Of a stretch of 37,340 nt of DNA, positions 1-32,153 are shown one piece after another. The translations under genes and the position numbers were made by a program. The notes under the pieces were generated by a model, which saw only the letters and a list, made by a program, of their open reading frames with translations, ran no database searches and was not told the DNA's origin. Positions within the stretch are counted from its first letter, which is position 1. Every line of letters starts with the position of its first letter. Source of the DNA: a virus; UHGV virus genome UHGV-0142298; one strand, 5' to 3'.

Positions 1-43
1 GCTTCCGGCAACTCGTGAGTAAAAAGATTCGGTATCAGAAGAG

Positions 44-1120
44 GTGAGTATGGCTAACGCCTGGCTCAGATTATGGCATGACATGCCAAATGACCCTAAG
101 TGGCGAACAATTGCCAGGGTGTCAGGGCAGCCAATTGCAACAGTGATGGCAGTGTATATCCACCTCCTGGTGAGCGCGTCACGAAATGTCACGCGAGGTC
201 ACATTGATGTCACGACAGAAGATTTGGCAAGTGCGCTCGACGTGACAGAAGAGGTAATTGATTCAATTTTGCAGACGATGCAGGGGCGGGTACTTGATGG
301 TGATTTAATCACTGGATGGGAAAAACGCCAGGTGCTGAAAGAGGACAACGGTAATATTTCGCAAACCGCAAAATCTCCGGCAGAGCGCAAGAGGGCGCAG
401 CGAGAGAGGGAAAGAAAGCGGGAACAAAATGGCGATTGTCACGGCGAGTCACGAAATGTCACGCACATGTCACGACGAGTCACGACAGATAAAGATACAG
501 ATAAAGATACAGATCAAGAAGATCAAAACACTATGGTCCATGGCGTAAAAAACGCCGCGAACCAGGCAGGGGATGTTCAGACCGTCAATCTTGGTCAGCC
601 AGCAGGCACGACACCGGAAGCCGATTCAGCGTATGCGCTGAAAGCCGATTCGGGCGCTGTGCAGCAGGTGATGACCGCAAGGCAGGAGCAATCACACCAA
701 CTTCAGCAGCCTGAAGCCGATTCCGCCATTCAGCGGGAAGCCGATCGGGTAGTCCCGGAAAACACCGGGCAGCCTGTGGGACGAGTGGATTATCCTGATG
801 TGTTCGAACAGGTCTGGCGGGAATACCCGTTGCGTGCCGGGGCAAACCCGAAGAAATCCGCTTTCAGTGCCTGGAAGGCCAGATTACGCGAGGGGGTGCC
901 ACCAGAGGCCATGCTGGATGGCGTGAGGCGTTACGCAAGATACCTGGCGGCTACCGGGAAAACGGGAACGGAATTTGTTCAGCGAGCGACGACGTTTTTT
1001 GGACCGGACCGGAATTTTGAAAACCCCTGGTTGCTCCCGGTAAGCGGTACGAACAACCAGCGTTGTGTGAATCATATTTCTGAACCGGATACCGAAATTC
1101 CACCGGGCTTCAGGGGGTAA
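44..1120 (+). CDS. Phage replication initiator / replisome organizer (O-like), origin iterons inside the gene
   Basis: 358-aa ORF at the left of the late arm; two clusters of GTCACG motifs at about 10-bp spacing lie inside the coding sequence, as ori does inside lambda O; acidic low-complexity linker (DKDTDKDTDQEDQ). Domain family recalled, not searched. Confidence 0.6.
   Translation: MSMANAWLRLWHDMPNDPKWRTIARVSGQPIATVMAVYIHLLVSASRNVTRGHIDVTTEDLASALDVTEEVIDSILQTMQGRVLDGDLITGWEKRQVLKEDNGNISQTAKSPAERKRAQRERERKREQNGDCHGESRNVTHMSRRVTTDKDTDKDTDQEDQNTMVHGVKNAANQAGDVQTVNLGQPAGTTPEADSAYALKADSGAVQQVMTARQEQSHQLQQPEADSAIQREADRVVPENTGQPVGRVDYPDVFEQVWREYPLRAGANPKKSAFSAWKARLREGVPPEAMLDGVRRYARYLAATGKTGTEFVQRATTFFGPDRNFENPWLLPVSGTNNQRCVNHISEPDTEIPPGFRG
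178..214. repeat. Iteron cluster 1 (4 x GTCAC[G/A] at about 10-bp spacing), candidate ori
   Basis: GTCACG at 178, 188, 209 and GTCACA at 198; the 15-mer TCACGAAATGTCACG recurs at 448-462. Confidence 0.55.
438..484. repeat. Iteron cluster 2 (5 x GTCACG at about 10-bp spacing), candidate ori
   Basis: GTCACG at 438, 448, 458, 469, 479, followed by a tandem GATAAAGATACA repeat at 488-512. Confidence 0.55.
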
Positions 1121-1160
1121 GTGTGTATTTCAGGTCATGAGGTAATTTTCAGGAGGACTT

Positions 1161-1586
1161 GTGGCAAAAGTTTTTACACAAGAAGAGCGAGAAAAAATTA
1201 AGGGGCAGGTTGTTGAACTTGTACGTCTGAGTGGTCGCGAGACGTTACGGGCTCTGGAGGCTAAAACCGGTGCATCAAGGTATTACATAAGCACTCTCGC
1301 CAGAGAGCTGGTTGCCAGCGGCGATGTATACAACTCTGGTTACGGATTATTCCCGTCTGAACAGGCTCGTAAGGACTGGCAAAATGCCCGCAAAAAACTC
1401 TCAAGGGCAAAGCTGAAGAAAAAAACATCTGTGGTTGATCCGGACCTTATCTGGTCATTACCTGACGGAGAAATACGTCGCTACGACAGTCGTCTAAACA
1501 TAATCTGTCGCGAGTGCCGGAAGAGCGAAGTTATGCAGCGCATACTGGCATTTTATCAGGGAAATGTTTGGTATTTATTGAAATGA
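1161..1586 (+). CDS. Hypothetical basic protein in the replication module (GTG start)
   Basis: 141-aa ORF beginning at GTG 1161 with AGGAGG 4 nt upstream (1152-1157); occupies the slot where a helicase loader would normally sit but is too small and has no Walker motif. Confidence 0.4.
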   Translation: MAKVFTQEEREKIKGQVVELVRLSGRETLRALEAKTGASRYYISTLARELVASGDVYNSGYGLFPSEQARKDWQNARKKLSRAKLKKKTSVVDPDLIWSLPDGEIRRYDSRLNIICRECRKSEVMQRILAFYQGNVWYLLK

Positions 1587-1826
1587 CGAGATTAAAGAGC
1601 ATTAGTTCAGATATTAATTGACACTTCGGTTGCATAAGACTAGAACTAGTGTGATTGGCATCTTTGTACCAAAAACGGACATTACAGTGTATGGTTAATT
1701 CTGCCTGTCAAATAACTTACATTCATCAAATGATCGAAATTATGACTTAGCTCAACAATTAGGTTTAGCATGGGTCATATGACTAGAGTGTAGCAACTTT
1801 CTGCTATAATTTAATAAGGATAAAAA

Positions 1827-2054
1827 ATGCCAGCTTATGCTAATAAAGGCGGTAATTCGGGTATAGTGTTTTATGAGATTACTCCAGATGCTATCACAGT
1901 ACAGTTTAAAGATGGATGGAAATACGTTTACGATTCTACAAAACCAGGGGCTTCAACGGTCTCTAGGATGAAAGAGTTAGCCCAGGCTGGGCATGGGCTA
2001 AATAGTTTTATTAGTAGTGTGGTTAAGAAAAATTTCTCACGTAAATACCTTTAA
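1827..2054 (+). CDS. Small KTSC-like domain protein (cargo gene)
   Basis: 75-aa ORF in an AT-rich island; TATAAT at 1805-1810 upstream; sequence style (FYEITPDAITVQFKDGWKYVY) recalls KTSC-domain proteins. Confidence 0.45.
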   Translation: MPAYANKGGNSGIVFYEITPDAITVQFKDGWKYVYDSTKPGASTVSRMKELAQAGHGLNSFISSVVKKNFSRKYL

Positions 2055-2207
2055 TTTTAATTGAGGGTGGGAAGGACTATCACCCTCATAATTCTTCACC
2101 ATTCAATCAAGAGCAATTCAAGGTGATTTGCTCTGTACATAGTCGGTTAGTTAGCACTTCGTAATTTATTGAATAGAAGGCTTTTGGAACAGTATCTTCA
2201 CTCGTGC

Positions 2208-2456
2208 TTATCGCCCAGCAGATTTAGCAAGAATAGTCTCGAGCATTTCTGGTACGTTGCCTTTAGCATTGATAGTTGCTGTTCGGTAAGCTAGTTGATT
2301 TTTTGAGAGATTGATTCCTGTAAGTGCTTCAATTTCGTTGCAGGCCTTACCCCATTCTACCCAGTTTTCAGACAAAAAAGATTCAAGATGATCCGCAAAT
2401 ATAGCAATATCATTAGTAACTGTTGCAGCTGGAATATAGACTATGCGAAAAGCCAT
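2208..2456 (-). CDS. Hypothetical protein
   Basis: 82-aa minus-strand ORF in the AT-rich island; no recognised motif; weak RBS. Confidence 0.25.
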   Translation of the reverse strand: MAFRIVYIPAATVTNDIAIFADHLESFLSENWVEWGKACNEIEALTGINLSKNQLAYRTATINAKGNVPEMLETILAKSAGR

Positions 2457-3079
2457 TGGTTGACTACTTCAATGTATCCTGTATCAACAATGAAAATGTC
2501 CGTTCTTCGCTCACAGAATTAGTGCGACAGCTTCGCACCAAGAGCTGACATTGTAATATCCGACAGGCTATTGCCTGTCAGTTAACAGTTACGTGTTATA
2601 AAAGGTCAGGCGGGATCCTGACTAGGTGTGTTTAAAGAAGTGCTGGTGGTGAGCGGGTGTTGTGTCCAATTTCCACAGAAAAAAATCTGAGAAACTATAC
2701 CCAATAGTTGTATTGAATCACTGACGAGACAGCCTCATATTTATCAGGACTGGTGTACTTCCAATTCAGGAGGTTGTCGTGCTGGTTCTCAAATGTGCGC
2801 TAGCTATTGCGGCTGTAATGGCAATTTATTGTCTTGCTGTTGTTCTTACGGATCGCCTTTCTGATTGATTTTATATTGGCGAGGTGACGTGAGTTAAGTA
2901 GAATTGCTGCGGGTGCTTGAGGCTATCTGCCTCAGGCATGAACACCAACGGCAGATAGAGAAAAGCCCCAGTTAACATTACGCGTCCTGCAAGACGCTTA
3001 ACATTAATCTGAGGCCAATTTCATGCTAGACACATGTAGGTTAGCCTCTTACGTGCCGGAAGGCAAGGAGAAGCAGGCT

Positions 3080-3235
3080 ATGAAGCAGCAAAAGGCGATG
3101 TTAATCGCCCTGATCGTCATCTGTTTAACCGTCATAGTGACGGCACTGGTAACGAGGAAAGACCTCTGCGAGGTACGAATCCGAACCGGCCAGACGGAGG
3201 TCGCTGTCTTCACAGCTTACGAACCTGAGGAGTAA
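3080..3235 (+). CDS. hokD: Hok/Gef-family membrane toxin (type I toxin)
   Basis: 51-aa product MKQQKAMLIALIVICLTVIVTALVTRKDLCEVRIRTGQTEVAVFTAYEPEE has the Hok signature (TM helix, LTRK.LCE.R, EVAAF..YE); the ORF track extends it upstream to 3023 (mok-like leader frame); intrinsic terminator follows. Confidence 0.8.
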   Translation: MKQQKAMLIALIVICLTVIVTALVTRKDLCEVRIRTGQTEVAVFTAYEPEE

Positions 3236-3299
3236 GAGACTAGGCGGGGGAGAAATCCCTCGCCACCTCTGATGAGTCAGGCATCCTCAATGCACCCGC

Positions 3300-3326
3300 G
3301 CTTAACCCGCTTCGGCGGGTTTTTCT
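3300..3326 (+). terminator. Intrinsic terminator downstream of hok
   Basis: AACCCGC-TTCG-GCGGGTT hairpin followed by a T-run. Confidence 0.6.
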
Positions 3327-3336
3327 AGCATCTACC

Positions 3337-3376
3337 TGGTTGACAAAGTCGATGTTAAATGGAAATATGGTTGACA
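3337..3376 (+). promoter_or_regulatory. Direct repeat TGGTTGACA x2 (31 bp apart) overlapping -35-like TTGACA boxes; candidate promoter/operator of the 3402-5158 operon
   Basis: TGGTTGACA at 3337-3345 and 3368-3376, immediately upstream of the ATG at 3402. Confidence 0.35.
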
Positions 3377-3401
3377 CCAAAACAACAAGGATATTACGGT
3401 C

Positions 3402-4016
3402 ATGCAGAATTTATCTCAACAGTTGTTAGAAGCATATGACAAGGAGTGCCGCAAAGAGCTTTCGATCGCGTTAGCACAGGCTTATCTTCATTCGCATATG
3501 AAGGCAAAAGAGTTTGGTTCTTTTTGGGCTCAAGCACAGTCATATTTGCGCTGGTTTTATGCCGATGCATTGCTTGAGAATGCGGCTAAGCGTGTGGGGC
3601 TGGATTTTGAAGTCGGTAGCAATGCTGCTAAAAATTGTAAACACATTGCGATTCACTCGAACAACTGGAAAATGACGGCACATCATTTATCGGGTAATGC
3701 GCCACTTCCTAAGCAGGCATTGTATAGAGCTGTTTACGCTAATCAAAATTATGAATTGAATTTTGGGGATGAAAATGCCGACTCCCTGGATGGGAGAGCG
3801 TCTGGTGGACATGTTTATATGTTACATGATGGCAGTAATCAGCACTTGTCCAAACTGAATTTAACTGTTCCTTCTTCGGATAATTACGGGATTCTTTATA
3901 CTGAGTCTTTACCAATTATGACGATGGTAGAAGTTGAAGCAGAAAATGTGGATTCTGAGATTGAAGATAAAATCAAGATTCTTACCGAACAAATAATTAA
4001 ATCACAGCAATCATGA
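3402..4016 (+). CDS. Hypothetical protein, first gene of a two-gene cassette (candidate effector/partner of the HTH-peptidase)
   Basis: 204-aa ORF; its stop overlaps the next start in ATGA (4013-4016), implying translational coupling; no recognisable domain or TM segment. Confidence 0.55.
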   Translation: MQNLSQQLLEAYDKECRKELSIALAQAYLHSHMKAKEFGSFWAQAQSYLRWFYADALLENAAKRVGLDFEVGSNAAKNCKHIAIHSNNWKMTAHHLSGNAPLPKQALYRAVYANQNYELNFGDENADSLDGRASGGHVYMLHDGSNQHLSKLNLTVPSSDNYGILYTESLPIMTMVEVEAENVDSEIEDKIKILTEQIIKSQQS

Positions 4017-5158
4017 GCATGAATATCGCACAAACACCATTTACTGATAAATCGTTTAATCCTCGTCGCCTTGAGGAGGCAAGAGAGGCAAAAGGGTTGA
4101 CGATGGCTGAACTTGCCAGAGTGCTCAATATTTCAAGACAAGCTATTTCGTCATTTGAGAAGGGGTTGAAGTCTCCCTCTGCTGATACACTTTCTGCAAT
4201 AGCCAAGGTGTTAGGATTTCCAGAACGATTTTTCTTAGCCTCCAGTGCTTCTCCATCTCTGGAGGGGGCGATTCATTTTAGAAGTCGTTCAACTGCGACC
4301 AAAAAGGCTCGAGTTACAGGGAAAACACGTGGGCGTTGGGCGGCATTAATATTGGATGAATGTCTAAAATATGCTCAATTACCAGATGTGGTTCTGCCTG
4401 AATTCGATATTATTGATTTTGAGGTTCTGTCTCTATCTGATATTGAGGATATGTCCACCCAATTAAGGCGTTTTTGGGGGTTAGGTGATGGTCCAATACT
4501 CAATTTAACTAGACTTGTTGAAAATAAAGGAATCGTGGTTTCTCATTTACCTTCTGGTGAGAAAGTTGATGCCTTTTCGTTCTGGCATAATGGGCGGCCT
4601 TTAATTATGTTAGATAGCTCGAAGACGGCTGTTCGCATGCGATTTAGTCTTGCTCATGAACTTGGCCATTTAATTATGCATAGGGCAGTGGAGGATGACT
4701 ACCTGAATGATAAAGAATTATTCGACCTGGTGGAGTTGCAGGCCGATTATTTTGCCTCCAGCTTTTTAATGCCAGCCACCACTTTCGGGCGTGAATTTTA
4801 TAGTCCAAATTTATCAGCGTTAGAACGATTAAAACTACGTTGGATTACATCTATCGGTAGTATTGCCATGAGGAGTCATAGCCTTAAGTTAATCAGCGAT
4901 AATCAGAAAAGCTATATATTTAAGCAATTAGCGCCATTCCATCGTAGGGAGCCGTTAGATGATGCAATCCCAAAAGAAGAGCCTGAGTTACTTAATAAGT
5001 TACTTTTACTTCTTGATAAGCATTCAATCATAAAGGTAACTGAGTTAACTGATATCTTTGCTCTTCCCTTAAATGAGTTATCTGCAATTACACGATTTAA
5101 AGAATCAGATATGATTCATTCTGACAATGTTATTTCATTTACCATAAAACAAAAATAA
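4013..5158 (+). CDS. HTH-XRE DNA-binding domain fused to an ImmA/IrrE-type (M78-like) zinc metallopeptidase
   Basis: N-terminal HTH (LTMAELARVLNISRQAISSFEKG); central HEXXH motif in SLAHELGHLIMH with a downstream acidic/aromatic segment (ELQADYFASSFLMP) typical of ImmA/IrrE peptidases. Confidence 0.75.
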   Translation: MSMNIAQTPFTDKSFNPRRLEEAREAKGLTMAELARVLNISRQAISSFEKGLKSPSADTLSAIAKVLGFPERFFLASSASPSLEGAIHFRSRSTATKKARVTGKTRGRWAALILDECLKYAQLPDVVLPEFDIIDFEVLSLSDIEDMSTQLRRFWGLGDGPILNLTRLVENKGIVVSHLPSGEKVDAFSFWHNGRPLIMLDSSKTAVRMRFSLAHELGHLIMHRAVEDDYLNDKELFDLVELQADYFASSFLMPATTFGREFYSPNLSALERLKLRWITSIGSIAMRSHSLKLISDNQKSYIFKQLAPFHRREPLDDAIPKEEPELLNKLLLLLDKHSIIKVTELTDIFALPLNELSAITRFKESDMIHSDNVISFTIKQK

Positions 5159-5167
5159 TTCTCATTC

Positions 5168-5195
5168 ATACCCGCCTCGGCGGGTTTTTGTTTTA
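5168..5195 (+). terminator. Intrinsic terminator after the HTH-peptidase gene
   Basis: CCCGCC-TC-GGCGGG hairpin plus TTTTTGTTTT; same hairpin family as the terminator after hok. Confidence 0.6.
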
Positions 5196-5505
5196 CGTAT
5201 TCTGGTTTACAATCCACAGGCCAGCCTGAACAACTGGCACCTGCTGCGCCAGCAGAGACAACCGATGGCGCACGATACCAAATTACACAATTCTGATGAT
5301 TCTGCCGTCTTTGCCAGCAGGCACGGGCGGCGCTCTCACGCATTTAAATCTGATTGGTACCAGCATCCCCCATGCACTGAAGAACAGGCCGAATGGCTGA
5401 TTCATTCTTACCGCAGGCGCGGGTTCGAGGTTAAGAAAGCTCTCAGTCTCGACTATCGGCACTGGATAATCTCTGTCAGGCTGCCTTATTCCGAACGCCC
5501 ACCAC

Positions 5506-6153
5506 GTGCGTCCCGCACTTTCCAGCAACGGATCTGGAGGTAACGTGCGGGTATTACTTAGACCTGTTCTGGTGCCAGAGCTTGGGCTGGTGGTCCTTAA
5601 ACTAGGCCGTGAATCCATGCCGGTATTCCACAATACCCGGGTACTGGTGGAGCCGGAACCGAAAAGCATGCGTAATCTGCCGTCCGGGGTCGTTCCTGCC
5701 GTTCGCCAGCCGCTGGTGGAAGACAAAACATTGCTGCCGTTTTTCAGTAACGCACGGGTGATTCGTGCTGCTGGTGGTGCTGGTGCATTGTCTGACTGGC
5801 TGTTGCGCCATATTAAATCCTGCCAGTGGCCGCACGGCGATTATCATCACAGCGAAACCGTCATTCACCGTTATGGTACCGGCGCAATGGTGTTGTGCTG
5901 GCACTGCGACAACCAACTGCGTGACCAGACATCCGAATCACTCGAGCAACTTGCTCATCAAAACCTGTCAGCATGGATGATTGACGTCATCGGTCACGCA
6001 ATAAGCGGTACGCAGGAGCGTGAATTATCTCTGGCTGAATTATCCTGGTGGGCGCTCCGCAATCAGGTGGCGGACGCGCTACCGGAAGCGGTATTACGTC
6101 GTTCGCTGGGATTACCAGCGGAAAATTCATACTATATTAGGAATAGTCCATAA
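5506..6153 (+). CDS. Hypothetical Cys/His-rich protein in the position of a late-gene regulator (possible Q-like antiterminator); start uncertain
   Basis: 215-aa ORF from GTG 5506 (alternative ATG 5620); contains HGDYHH...CWHCDNQ; a second frame (5265-5543) overlaps upstream, so a frameshifted or longer gene is possible. Confidence 0.3.
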   Translation: MRPALSSNGSGGNVRVLLRPVLVPELGLVVLKLGRESMPVFHNTRVLVEPEPKSMRNLPSGVVPAVRQPLVEDKTLLPFFSNARVIRAAGGAGALSDWLLRHIKSCQWPHGDYHHSETVIHRYGTGAMVLCWHCDNQLRDQTSESLEQLAHQNLSAWMIDVIGHAISGTQERELSLAELSWWALRNQVADALPEAVLRRSLGLPAENSYYIRNSP

Positions 6154-6243
6154 CAGAAAAATTGTCAGTGATGACGTCAGAAAGGCAATTTATTCCGTGC
6201 ACTACACAGTTTATGTGTTAATGAATTAGTCAAGGGGGAGGAT

Positions 6244-7203
6244 ATGATAAAAAAACCTGTGATTGGAATCAGCGGTTGTTTGGCCGGTTCTGCTGTTCGT
6301 TTTGATGGTGGTCACAAAAGAGCTGACTTTTTAATGGACAAATTAGTGGAATGGGTAACATTCAGACCAGTATGTCCGGAAATGGCTATAGGGCTGCCAG
6401 TTCCGCGTCCTGCTCTACGTCTTGTGCGCTCGAAGCAAGGAAATATACGGATGTGTTTCAGCCACGACCAGAATGAGGATGTGACAGAGAGAATGACAGA
6501 GTTTAGTCGTTCTTATATGCACAAATTAAAGGATGTATCGGGGTTTGTGGTTTGTGCTAAATCTCCCAGCTGTGGCATGGAGCGCGTGCGTGTCTATGAT
6601 GAAAATGGTAATCGAGGTCGTAAAGATGGAGTGGGACTATTTACGAGCACTTTGATGGAAAAGTTTTCCTGGCTACCGGTTGAAGAGGATGGGCGATTAC
6701 ATGATCCAGTGCTTCGTGAGAATTTTGTTGAAAGAGTTTTTGCTTTGCATGAGCTCAATCACCTTTACAAGGAGAAATTATCAAGAAGAGAGTTATTAGC
6801 TTTTCATAGTCGTTATAAGCTTCAGTTGTTGGCGCATAGTCAGGCAGGCTATAAAGATATGGGACCATTTGTGGCTGCAATACACGAGTGGGCGGACCTT
6901 GAATCATACTTTGAGGTGTATCGTGATAAGCTGATGGCGATTCTCAGAAAACCTGCATCACGTAAAAATCACACGAATGTGCTGATGCATATACAGGGGT
7001 ATTTTAGTAATTACTTAAGTACACGCCAGCGTAAAGAGTTGACCGAGGTTATACTTAACTATCGCTTTGGCACATTGCCTCTTCTTGCGCCGTTGACTCT
7101 GCTGAAGCATTATCTGGGTGAGTATCCTAATGATTACTTGCTTACACAGAATTACTTCGATCCCTATCCGGAAGAACTGGCTCTAAGACTGATGGTGAAT
7201 TAA
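6244..7203 (+). CDS. DUF523/DUF1722-like fusion protein (TudS-like thiouracil desulfidase family candidate)
   Basis: 319-aa ORF with RBS GGGGGAGG; N-terminus KPVIGISGCLAGSAVRFDGGHK resembles the DUF523 Cys-containing signature; family assignment is from memory. Confidence 0.6.
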   Translation: MIKKPVIGISGCLAGSAVRFDGGHKRADFLMDKLVEWVTFRPVCPEMAIGLPVPRPALRLVRSKQGNIRMCFSHDQNEDVTERMTEFSRSYMHKLKDVSGFVVCAKSPSCGMERVRVYDENGNRGRKDGVGLFTSTLMEKFSWLPVEEDGRLHDPVLRENFVERVFALHELNHLYKEKLSRRELLAFHSRYKLQLLAHSQAGYKDMGPFVAAIHEWADLESYFEVYRDKLMAILRKPASRKNHTNVLMHIQGYFSNYLSTRQRKELTEVILNYRFGTLPLLAPLTLLKHYLGEYPNDYLLTQNYFDPYPEELALRLMVN

Positions 7204-7600
7204 CTGTATGCGATATCATCTGAAAGTGATGAGTTCCTGTATGCAGGATATTTACAATCGTAAAAACTACACTATGATACCCATAGTGTCAGTTTGTATA
7301 AAAATCCTGTTCACGCTGAAGAAAACATTGAGATGCAATTTAATGTTGGTAAACATACCAGCCCCAAAAGATTTTATTCAATCTGTTTTTATATGAAGAT
7401 ATTTCAAGTGAATATTAAGAGTATATAATATTATTATTGCACGCAGCTATTATAATATAACAGATTAGTTTAATGATTTGTTTTTTGTGAGTTAAACACA
7501 TGGTTTTATAGTTGTGATGCAATGAGATTTTCCTTATTGTTGAACTGGCGAATATTGATTTTCCACCTATACTTACCTGGTGTAACCCCAGTGATATCAG

Positions 7601-8323
7601 GTGGATAATATGCCATACATATGTTCTGTCATTTTGGTGTTGAACTCGTTTGGTGTCCGAATTGGTAAAGAAGATATTTTGTTTAAAAAAGGAAGTGCTG
7701 TCCTCATCGAATACAATTTAAAAGATCTTTTTTCGTCAAATACAGATCATCTAATGATCGTAGATGTTGAGGAGAAAACAGTTAATGATTTCTTTAAAAA
7801 CTACACACTCTCACCTTTTTCTGTAAGAAGGTTTTATCCGTCATACTTGATAGTAGAATGTGAAGATTTTTCATTGTTAAGGAACTTGGTTGCATGCTTG
7901 AATTGTGATAGCAAAACCGTGGATGTAGTTAGAAATCAAATATCACTTGCATGTCTTGCTGTCTTATCTTCAGAGAAAATAGTGCAAAGTTTTTTGTTCG
8001 GAAGTCTTAATAGCTTAGGTTGTAAAGTTAAGGCTATTATTCACTCGGATATCTCAGCGTCATGGAGACTTTGTGATATATCTTCAAGATTATATATGAG
8101 CGAGAGTTTGTTAAAAAGAAAATTAAAAGACGAAGGATTATCGTTTAGTAAATTAATTCTTGAAGAACGAATGATGATGGCGCAAAGATTATTGATCTAC
8201 AGTAACCATACTGTCGGCAAGGTGGCGGGAATATGCGGGTATGACAATGCATCATATTTTGTAAGTGTTTTTAGAGGATATTTTGGTGTGCCTCCGCACC
8301 AATATTTATCAAGATTTTCTTAG
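7601..8323 (+). CDS. AraC-family transcriptional regulator (cargo gene)
   Basis: 240-aa ORF in a very AT-rich island; C-terminal AraC-type HTH (VGKVAGICGYDNASYFVSVFRGYFGVPPHQY). Confidence 0.75.
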   Translation: MDNMPYICSVILVLNSFGVRIGKEDILFKKGSAVLIEYNLKDLFSSNTDHLMIVDVEEKTVNDFFKNYTLSPFSVRRFYPSYLIVECEDFSLLRNLVACLNCDSKTVDVVRNQISLACLAVLSSEKIVQSFLFGSLNSLGCKVKAIIHSDISASWRLCDISSRLYMSESLLKRKLKDEGLSFSKLILEERMMMAQRLLIYSNHTVGKVAGICGYDNASYFVSVFRGYFGVPPHQYLSRFS

Positions 8324-8389: not shown

Positions 8390-8425
8390 CTACGCCAGAA
8401 TAATTGCTGGCGTTTTTCTTTTTGA
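8390..8425 (+). terminator. Intrinsic terminator upstream of the lysis cassette (tR'-like position)
   Basis: ACGCCAG-AATAATTG-CTGGCGT hairpin followed by TTTTTCTTTTT. Confidence 0.55.
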
Positions 8426-31553: not shown

Positions 31554-32153
31554 ATGCGTAAAGTTTGTGCAGCCATTTTGTCCGCAGCCATCTGTCTGTC
31601 CGTATCCGGTGCGCCTGCATGGGCATCTGAACATCAGTCCACGCTGAGCGCGGGGTATCTTCATGCCTCGACGAACGTTCCCGGCAGCGATGATCTTAAC
31701 GGGATTAACGTGAAATACCGTTATGAGTTTACGGACACACTGGGGCTGGTGACGTCATTCAGCTATGCAGGAGACAAGAATCGCCAGCTTACCCGTTACA
31801 GCAATACCCGCTGGCATGAAGATTCCGTGCGTAACCGCTGGTTCAGCGTGATGGTGGGGCCGTCTGTGCGCGTGAATGAATGGTTCAGCGCGTATGCGAT
31901 GGCGGGTATGGCTTACAGCCGTGTGTCGACTTTTTCCGGGGATTATCTCCGCGTAACTGACAATAAGGGGAAAACGCACGATGTGCTGACCGGAAGTGAT
32001 GACGGTCGCCACAGCAACACGTCTCTGGCGTGGGGAGCTGGCGTGCAGTTTAACCCGACCGAATCCGTGGCCATTGATATTGCTTATGAAGGCTCCGGCA
32101 GTGGTGACTGGCGCACTGACGGTTTCATCGTGGGTGTCGGTTATAAATTCTGA
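31554..32153 (+). CDS. lom: Lom/Ail-family outer membrane beta-barrel protein
   Basis: 199 aa with signal peptide, alternating-residue beta-strands, C-terminal GYKF; position after J as in lambda. Confidence 0.85.

Follow-up and report, generated by a model that had tools for sequence, protein, structure and literature searches.

The antiterminator Q of lambdoid phages joins RNA polymerase at a loading site that overlaps the late promoter, just downstream of the Q gene, and in lambda, 21 and 82 it is needed for read-through of the terminators that lie before the lysis and morphogenesis genes. In the intact sister prophages of the element described here, a 125-aa antiterminator of the Q21/QuuD type (PF06530), with a presumed late promoter beside it, directly follows the gene ydfU. 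The DUF968/YdfU family has been placed together with YbcO (PDB 3g27) in group 7 of the His-Me finger proteins, and RusA and Q are typical neighbours of genes of this group (PMC5714182). Curtis et al. linked the DUF968 proteins, as fusions with HNH, to recombination functions, and proposed that they consist of Orf-like DNA-binding domains fused to HNH (PMC4118853). The same slot of the nin region, beside RusA and Q, is taken in prophage DLP12 by YbcO (DUF1364), the His-Me finger relative with a solved structure, and by YbcN (Orf/NinB family). Escherichia coli K-12 carries ydfU (b1560) in the cryptic prophage Qin which, like DLP12 and Rac, is a grounded lambdoid prophage, with regulatory or lytic functions deleted and cargo retained.

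We analysed positions 5265-6153 of a 37,340-nucleotide stretch of viral DNA (UHGV virus genome UHGV-0142298; the whole stretch is referred to as the window). The interval is best explained as the early-right ('nin') region of a Qin-like lambdoid prophage at the E. coli ydfJ/ydfK locus. We put the probability of this reading at about 0.9, a figure that covers the whole explanation: two genes, no frameshift, a deletion that removed Q together with part of ydfU, and a prophage left without its late switch. The likeness to K-12 Qin is close: 172 of the 193 retained YdfU residues are identical to those of b1560, and the start context, the 92-aa open reading frame (ORF) upstream and the early-right position ahead of Q are the same. 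The difference is that the K-12 protein and all other intact copies have 349-352 aa and a CxxC...HH...CxxHH motif, which the window copy does not contain. On the left, the block is bordered by an intrinsic-terminator-like hairpin found by terminator scan (5170..5185, plus strand; ACCCGCCTCGGCGGGT followed by a T-run), which closes the upstream Rosmerta cassette (RmrT/RmrA at 3402-5158, identified with PADLOC). On the right, a gene of the RudS/YbgA type (2-thiouracil desulfurase plus DUF1722; 6244..7203, plus strand) now lies 91 nt behind the remnant of ydfU, and the terminator scan finds no terminator-like site between the two. A search against Rfam found no RNA family in 5100-6300.

A preliminary description of this DNA had reported a GC-rich region in which overlapping frames on both strands left the true gene ambiguous. 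The GC content of 5265-6153 is 53.7 %; the whole window averages 49 %, and the cargo stretches on its two sides have 40 % and 37 %, so that the region is rich only relative to its surroundings; given this contrast, the antisense frames would be open by chance. The mechanical ORF list does reproduce all the frames described: two on the plus strand in different frames, 5265..5543 (92 aa, ATG start) and 5506..6153 (215 aa, GTG start), and two on the minus strand, 5283..5726 (147 aa) and 5602..5916 (104 aa). The ambiguity, however, stems from the mechanical ORF calling itself, and the 38-nt overlap of the two plus-strand ORFs (5506-5543) arises because the program takes the first upstream GTG (5506) as a start. 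In LF82 and Ecol_316, PGAP calls a 92-aa hypothetical protein and a 349-aa ydfU as separate coding sequences, with the ydfU start at the position corresponding to GTG 5545 of the window. This start belongs to a junction of the form GGAGG-TAA-C-GTG (5535..5547, plus strand), in which the Shine-Dalgarno sequence (5535-5539) sits within the 3' end of the upstream gene (hereafter ORF-A) and the GTG (5545-5547) lies one base past the ORF-A stop codon (TAA, 5541-5543) and 5 nt past the GGAGG. Such an arrangement is standard for translational coupling, and ORF-A and ydfU are probably coupled. Since positions 5100-6125 are 100 % identical in E. coli LF82, phage Tritos and at least 18 other complete genomes, resequencing of 5500-5545 is needless.

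We aligned the window with six homologues (K-12 Qin and phages Evi, 689R5, HannyBb, Stx2_14040 and mEp460_ev081) that share 88-92 % DNA identity. Variable columns fall on codon positions 1, 2 and 3 in the numbers 18, 19 and 49 in ORF-A, and 23, 18 and 88 in ydfU; this excess at third positions supports both plus frames as coding. The 12-nt boundary motif GGAGGTAACGTG is unchanged in all seven sequences. As far as sequence comparison can tell, the interval thus consists of two separate, adjacent and ordinary prophage genes, ORF-A and ydfU, without a frameshift. A fusion of ORF-A with the downstream frame, by way of a -1/+1 frameshift, programmed or mutational, within 5506-5543, is suggested by the 38 nt that the two same-strand ORFs share in different frames; its probability is virtually negligible. 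The ORF-A stop and the ydfU Shine-Dalgarno sequence and GTG are invariant in 7/7 sequences, whereas the GTG at 5506, within the overlap, is missing in four of the six homologues. Variation within the overlap tracks the ORF-A frame only (1/1/5 by ORF-A codon position) and, in the other frame, lands on position 2. All full-length homologues of YdfU, the most distant at 23 % identity, start at the equivalent of MRVLL and have no N-terminal extension, which is not the picture of a programmed frameshift, and each ORF has clean single-frame homologues that are everywhere annotated as two genes. The notion that one of the large minus-strand ORFs is the expressed gene draws on the fact that both are open in the window and that the longer one (5283..5726) matches PHROG 2734 (E 1.1e-28). 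The homologues argue against it. The 147-aa frame has one to four internal stops in 6/6 of them and the 104-aa frame is interrupted in 5/6, so that neither is conserved. Variation is concentrated on codon position 1 of both antisense frames (33/14/14 in 5283..5726 and 57/10/12 in 5602..5916), which corresponds to the wobble position in the plus-strand genes, and the codon changes are overwhelmingly non-synonymous in both; in the five stop-bearing homologues, 5602..5916 shows 3-4 synonymous against 28-35 non-synonymous changes. Neither antisense ORF matches Pfam or NCBIfam, 5602..5916 has no match among the PHROGs either, and PHROG 2734 appears to be a family of antisense miscalls of this same kind. 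We regard a minus-strand gene as exceedingly improbable and treat both frames as shadow ORFs, returning to the two plus-strand genes as the content of the interval.

Similarity to every ydfU ends abruptly at window position 6125. Compared with the Ecol_316 prophage, window positions 1-6125 are 99.98 % and positions 6126-31687 are 99.82 % identical, and 1,618 bp (3227-4844 of the Ecol_316 locus L003) are missing between them, which places the deletion junction at 6125..6126. The junction shows no microhomology. The absent DNA comprises ydfU codons 194-349, including the CxxC...HH...CxxHH His-Me finger (HNH); the gene for the Q21/QuuD-type antiterminator (PF06530 Phage_antitermQ, E 3e-50); the 155-bp stretch that separates the Q and lipocalin genes, in which a promoter-like match and a strong hairpin of terminator type occur; and, on the opposite strand, a lipocalin gene (174 aa) together with 74 bp upstream of it. 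The part deleted beyond Q amounts to 754 bp. In our reading, an illegitimate 1,618-bp deletion took, in one piece, the nuclease half of YdfU, Q, the DNA just downstream of Q and the lipocalin cargo gene. The only other structural difference from Ecol_316 over 37 kb is an ISEc10 element in lom, present there and absent from the window. Both the abrupt end at 6125 and the deletion had gone unnoticed in the preliminary description.

What remains of ydfU (5545..6153, plus strand; DUF968 family, delimited by alignment to Ecol_316) has a predicted product of 202 aa, made up of 193 authentic residues and nine junction-derived ones (NSYYIRNSP); intact copies have 349-352 aa. The read-through tail of nine codons and a TAA (6126..6153, plus strand) comes from DNA that normally lies between genes, ahead of the RudS/YbgA gene. 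Up to 6125 the DNA is 100 % identical to ydfU of LF82, and residues 1-193 share 89-98 % protein identity with YdfU of K-12 and phages. The family matches reflect the truncation. The product matches phrog_96 ('HNH endonuclease') over positions 1-194 of 334 only (E 7e-91), and PF06147 over model positions 1-36 of 171 only, at 27.4 bits and thus under the cut-off of 27.8; the intact sister YdfU scores 256.8 bits against PF06147 over positions 1-171 (E 1.3e-76). The intact protein also matches several HNH PHROGs and reaches 24.2 bits against PF16784 (HNHc_6), below the cut-off of 26.6. Its His-Me finger motif lies at residues ~270-330 of 349, beyond the end of the authentic part at 193, and tblastn of the window with the C-terminal part of YdfU found nothing. 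By these matches, the gene in the window represents a fragment of a DUF968/YdfU member rather than a complete member. As the deletion removes the 3' 45 % of ydfU, we read the gene as a 3'-truncated pseudogene that would yield, at most, a 202-aa nuclease-less N-terminal fragment, and it is worth flagging as such in annotation. The preliminary description had offered, besides the frameshift, an intact gene with a non-canonical start and a frameshifted pseudogene. The non-canonical start is real, although the GTG is at 5545 rather than 5506 and the gene lacks its 3' part; the word pseudogene likewise applies, with the 1,618-bp deletion and not a frameshift as its cause. Judged by its family and gene neighbourhood, intact YdfU is most likely a phage nuclease that acts in DNA processing or recombination.

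The retained part of YdfU contains the Cys/His cluster that had been called compatible with a zinc-binding regulator, with HGDYHH encoded at 5833-5850 and CWHCDNQ at 5896-5916. We counted the conservation of its Cys and His residues among 37 YdfU homologues (23-89 % identity). C93 and C118 are present in 37/37, and H or C occupies position 101 in 33/37 (20 H and 13 C) and position 121 in all 37 (21 H and 16 C), whereas H97, H102 and H120 are not conserved. The resulting set C93/H101/C118/C121 (5821..5907, plus strand; C93 at 5821-5823 and C121 at 5905-5907) forms the pattern typical of structural zinc sites, and we consider it a putative one. The zinc-type pattern of four ligands therefore holds up, but the term 'regulator' does not, the family being one of His-Me finger (HNH) nucleases. 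We also considered whether the cluster arose as a degenerate copy of the C-terminal HNH; the motifs do not align and BLASTP gives E 0.27, and the idea was dropped as unsupported. An AlphaFold2 model of YdfU residues 1-193, built from the 37-sequence alignment, has a pLDDT of 91 and a pTM of 0.76, with a beta-hairpin (105-118) followed by a helix (119-125) at pLDDT >90. Foldseek comparison of this model gave a best E of 3.0 with TM ≤0.17 in the PDB and a best E of 0.7 in BFVD; the lambda Orf structure (PDB 1PC6) was not recovered in the PDB search. Residues 1-135 have no Pfam match, NinB/Orf included, at E values up to 10, and a PDB sequence search with full-length YdfU returned only noise (E > 0.4). 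On the strength of the model, the proposed Orf-like N terminus (PMC4118853) is not confirmed for the enterobacterial YdfU clade. The confident model, the conserved C/[HC]/C/[HC] site and the lack of a match in the PDB or BFVD raise the tentative and rather doubtful idea that the ~190-residue N terminus is an undescribed zinc-binding fold, which may direct the HNH nuclease to one kind of DNA structure and may pair with the always-adjacent ORF-A in a two-gene recombination or anti-defence module of lambdoid phages. If so, the natural truncation in the window would be a ready-made 'domain-only' allele.

The reality of the deletion, the fate of its product and the position of Q can be weighed together. 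The exact junction occurs in ENA assembly ERZ652107 (a 147-kb contig) and in the Logan assemblies of SRR8090572 and SRR4408104, all 100 % identical to the window; the exact 202-aa product is recorded on five contigs. The recurrence in assemblies of three different samples indicates that the deletion is real. In none of the 5,426 complete E. coli genomes is the junction 6125|6126 spanned, and hence the deletion is restricted to a single clone or narrow lineage; the three samples may represent one clone sequenced repeatedly rather than a spreading lineage. Read differently, the lack of microhomology and the absence of the junction from all complete E. coli genomes in the collection would point to an assembly artefact in a strain whose ydfU-Q segment is intact. 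We hold this to be very improbable, for the junction and the 202-aa product come from three samples, five contigs and different pipelines (an ENA SPAdes-style NODE contig and two Logan assemblies), and the junction is flanked by unique sequence and not by repeats. Given a real deletion, the fragment could act as a stand-alone module, for example in DNA binding or as a dominant-negative form, with RudS and the AraC regulator placed under read-through from the early operon. The compact, confidently modelled domain and the missing terminator-like site ahead of rudS are in keeping with this, and short proteins of this region alone do exist (phrog_11007, with 134 positions, and representatives of 130-220 aa). 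Many of the short homologues are, however, contig-end fragments or other truncations, the last ~10 residues of the product are of low confidence in the model and look like junk, and an allele found in one clone only leaves no time for selection to show; a functional fragment is unlikely, and a truncated pseudogene remains our reading of the gene. Some automated annotations make YdfU the late-gene antiterminator itself, or else a transcription regulator that binds zinc. RAST-annotated phages label ydfU 'Phage antitermination protein Q', and the Cys/His cluster is real; yet the same phages have a genuine Q downstream of ydfU, after rusA, and the label on ydfU is thus a mislabel. The literature classes YdfU as a nuclease family (PMC5714182). 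When the frames of 5265-6153 were checked against the Q and DUF968 families, the downstream ORF gave the N-terminal DUF968-family match and neither plus-strand ORF a Q-family one, and no ORF of the interval matched a Q family in Pfam, PHROGs or NCBIfam (families tested: PF06530, Q21 type; PF03589, lambda type; PF06323, 82 type), HNH/His-Me families being matched instead by YdfU. For NCBIfam, the absence of a YdfU match should be read alongside the fact that even the intact Q gives none there. A Q function of YdfU is accordingly very unlikely, as tblastn with three Q types also found nothing in the window, the ydfU remnant included.

The expectation of a Q gene at this place was well founded, because Q lies directly downstream of ydfU in intact relatives; in the window it has been deleted and has not diverged. 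A tblastn search of the whole window with the Q21-type Q, YdfT/QuuQ and two further phage Q proteins gave a best E of 0.18, and one with Q proteins, RusA, the lipocalin and the YdfU C terminus found nothing (best E 0.03); Q is therefore gone and not hidden in an unusual frame. With Q and the following 754 bp gone, and with terminator-like hairpins still in place before the holin gene (7269-7289, 8283-8302 and 8392-8413), the late genes should stay off. By analogy with the lambdoid Q switch, the prophage would probably be without late-gene control, its lysis and morphogenesis genes no longer being activated on induction. A compatible Q may be supplied in trans by another prophage. A promoter scan of the deleted DNA gave, as its best hit, a weak 9/12 match, and match counts were no higher than in shuffled sequence. 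In phages of the 434/mEp332 type, homology stops within Q itself, and the comparison therefore gives no indication of where the late promoter lies.

The genes for lysis, head and tail have all been retained in full, with 99.8 % identity to those of inducible-type relatives. Their near identity to the intact relatives indicates that the deletion is recent and lineage-specific. Like Qin, DLP12 and Rac, the prophage has lost a regulatory function and kept its cargo (Rosmerta, hok/sok, RudS and the AraC regulator); unlike them, it retains complete structural and lysis genes and carries a single inactivating lesion. To judge from its gene content, it is at an early step of prophage grounding. Prophage-completeness tools that count structural genes would call it intact; its structural module does look complete, but the prophage is to be scored as lacking Q and as probably not inducible for lysis. 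For the cargo beside it (Rosmerta, RudS and the AraC regulator), this would mean confinement to a locked prophage. In the isolated phages 1H12 and IdasGreatGrand, the Q-lipocalin-RudS-AraC module occurs in functional form. Neither gene is new, nor are the family, the gene order and the decay of prophages by deletion; the outcome is a clarified annotation, a lineage-specific pseudogene and the loss of Q.

ORF-A (5265..5543, plus strand) encodes a conserved 92-aa hypothetical protein (WP_015912508; PHROG 1212, E 1.2e-35) and is intact in 7/7 loci, K-12 included. Its constant adjacency to ydfU and the predicted coupling suggest that the protein works with YdfU. In the structural model, the first ~24 aa are variable and predicted to be disordered; after them come a small beta-alpha-beta-beta core, modelled with moderate confidence (pLDDT ~85), and a basic tail. 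Foldseek with this model retrieved only generic small alpha/beta sandwiches (E ≥0.13), a PDB sequence search gave noise only (E > 0.4) and NCBIfam no match; PADLOC found no defence-system match for ORF-A or the ydfU remnant. An identity of ORF-A with Rem was rejected, as Rem is a separate 83-aa gene farther upstream in K-12 and in Stx/PPompW phages. The position of rem is taken in the window by the Rosmerta cassette. In K-12 MG1655, ORF-A is intact and unannotated, between rem and ydfU.

In the window, the slot that rem takes in E. coli K-12 and in the Stx/PPompW phages is occupied by the two-gene Rosmerta defence cassette (RmrT/RmrA, 3402-5158), which a strong terminator closes at 5170-5185. 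An intact copy of ORF-A, the 92-aa protein gene directly 5' of ydfU (5265-5543, plus strand), is present in E. coli K-12 MG1655 between rem (b1561) and ydfU (b1560), although the NC_000913.3 record leaves it unannotated. The K-12 protein is identical to that of the window at 78 of 92 residues, and its junction with ydfU is the same, SD-TAA-C-GTG.

On the opposite strand, the ORF at 5283-5726 (minus) matches PHROG 2734 ('unknown function') with an E value of 1e-28. Because its reading frame is disrupted in all six homologues examined, PHROG 2734 appears to collect antisense ORFs miscalled on the strand opposite to the gene for the 92-aa protein.

Residues 1-193 of YdfU (5545-6123) have a confident predicted fold (pLDDT 91), and the C/[HC]/C/[HC] site that they contain is conserved. 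We found no significant structural match to this model in PDB and BFVD, and no Pfam model exists for these residues; the domain is common to about 188 representative clusters of a 1.8-billion-protein library. In RAST-type annotation, ydfU is called 'Phage antitermination protein Q' in phage Evi (1879-2928) and in mEp460_ev081 (1798-2847). Both phages carry a genuine Q gene downstream of ydfU, after rusA. The label is a propagating error and could misdirect homology-based annotation.

Between the truncated ydfU and the RudS/YbgA gene (6154-6243), a terminator-like site is absent after the deletion. Transcription of the cargo genes may thus have shifted from the late promoter to read-through out of the early-right operon.

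In the Ecol_316 sister prophage, ISEc10 (IS21 family) sits inside the lom (Ail/Lom) gene, as seen by comparison with 31682-31687 of the window. No such insertion breaks the lom gene of the window, so that the two lineages differ in the one lesion that each of them has.
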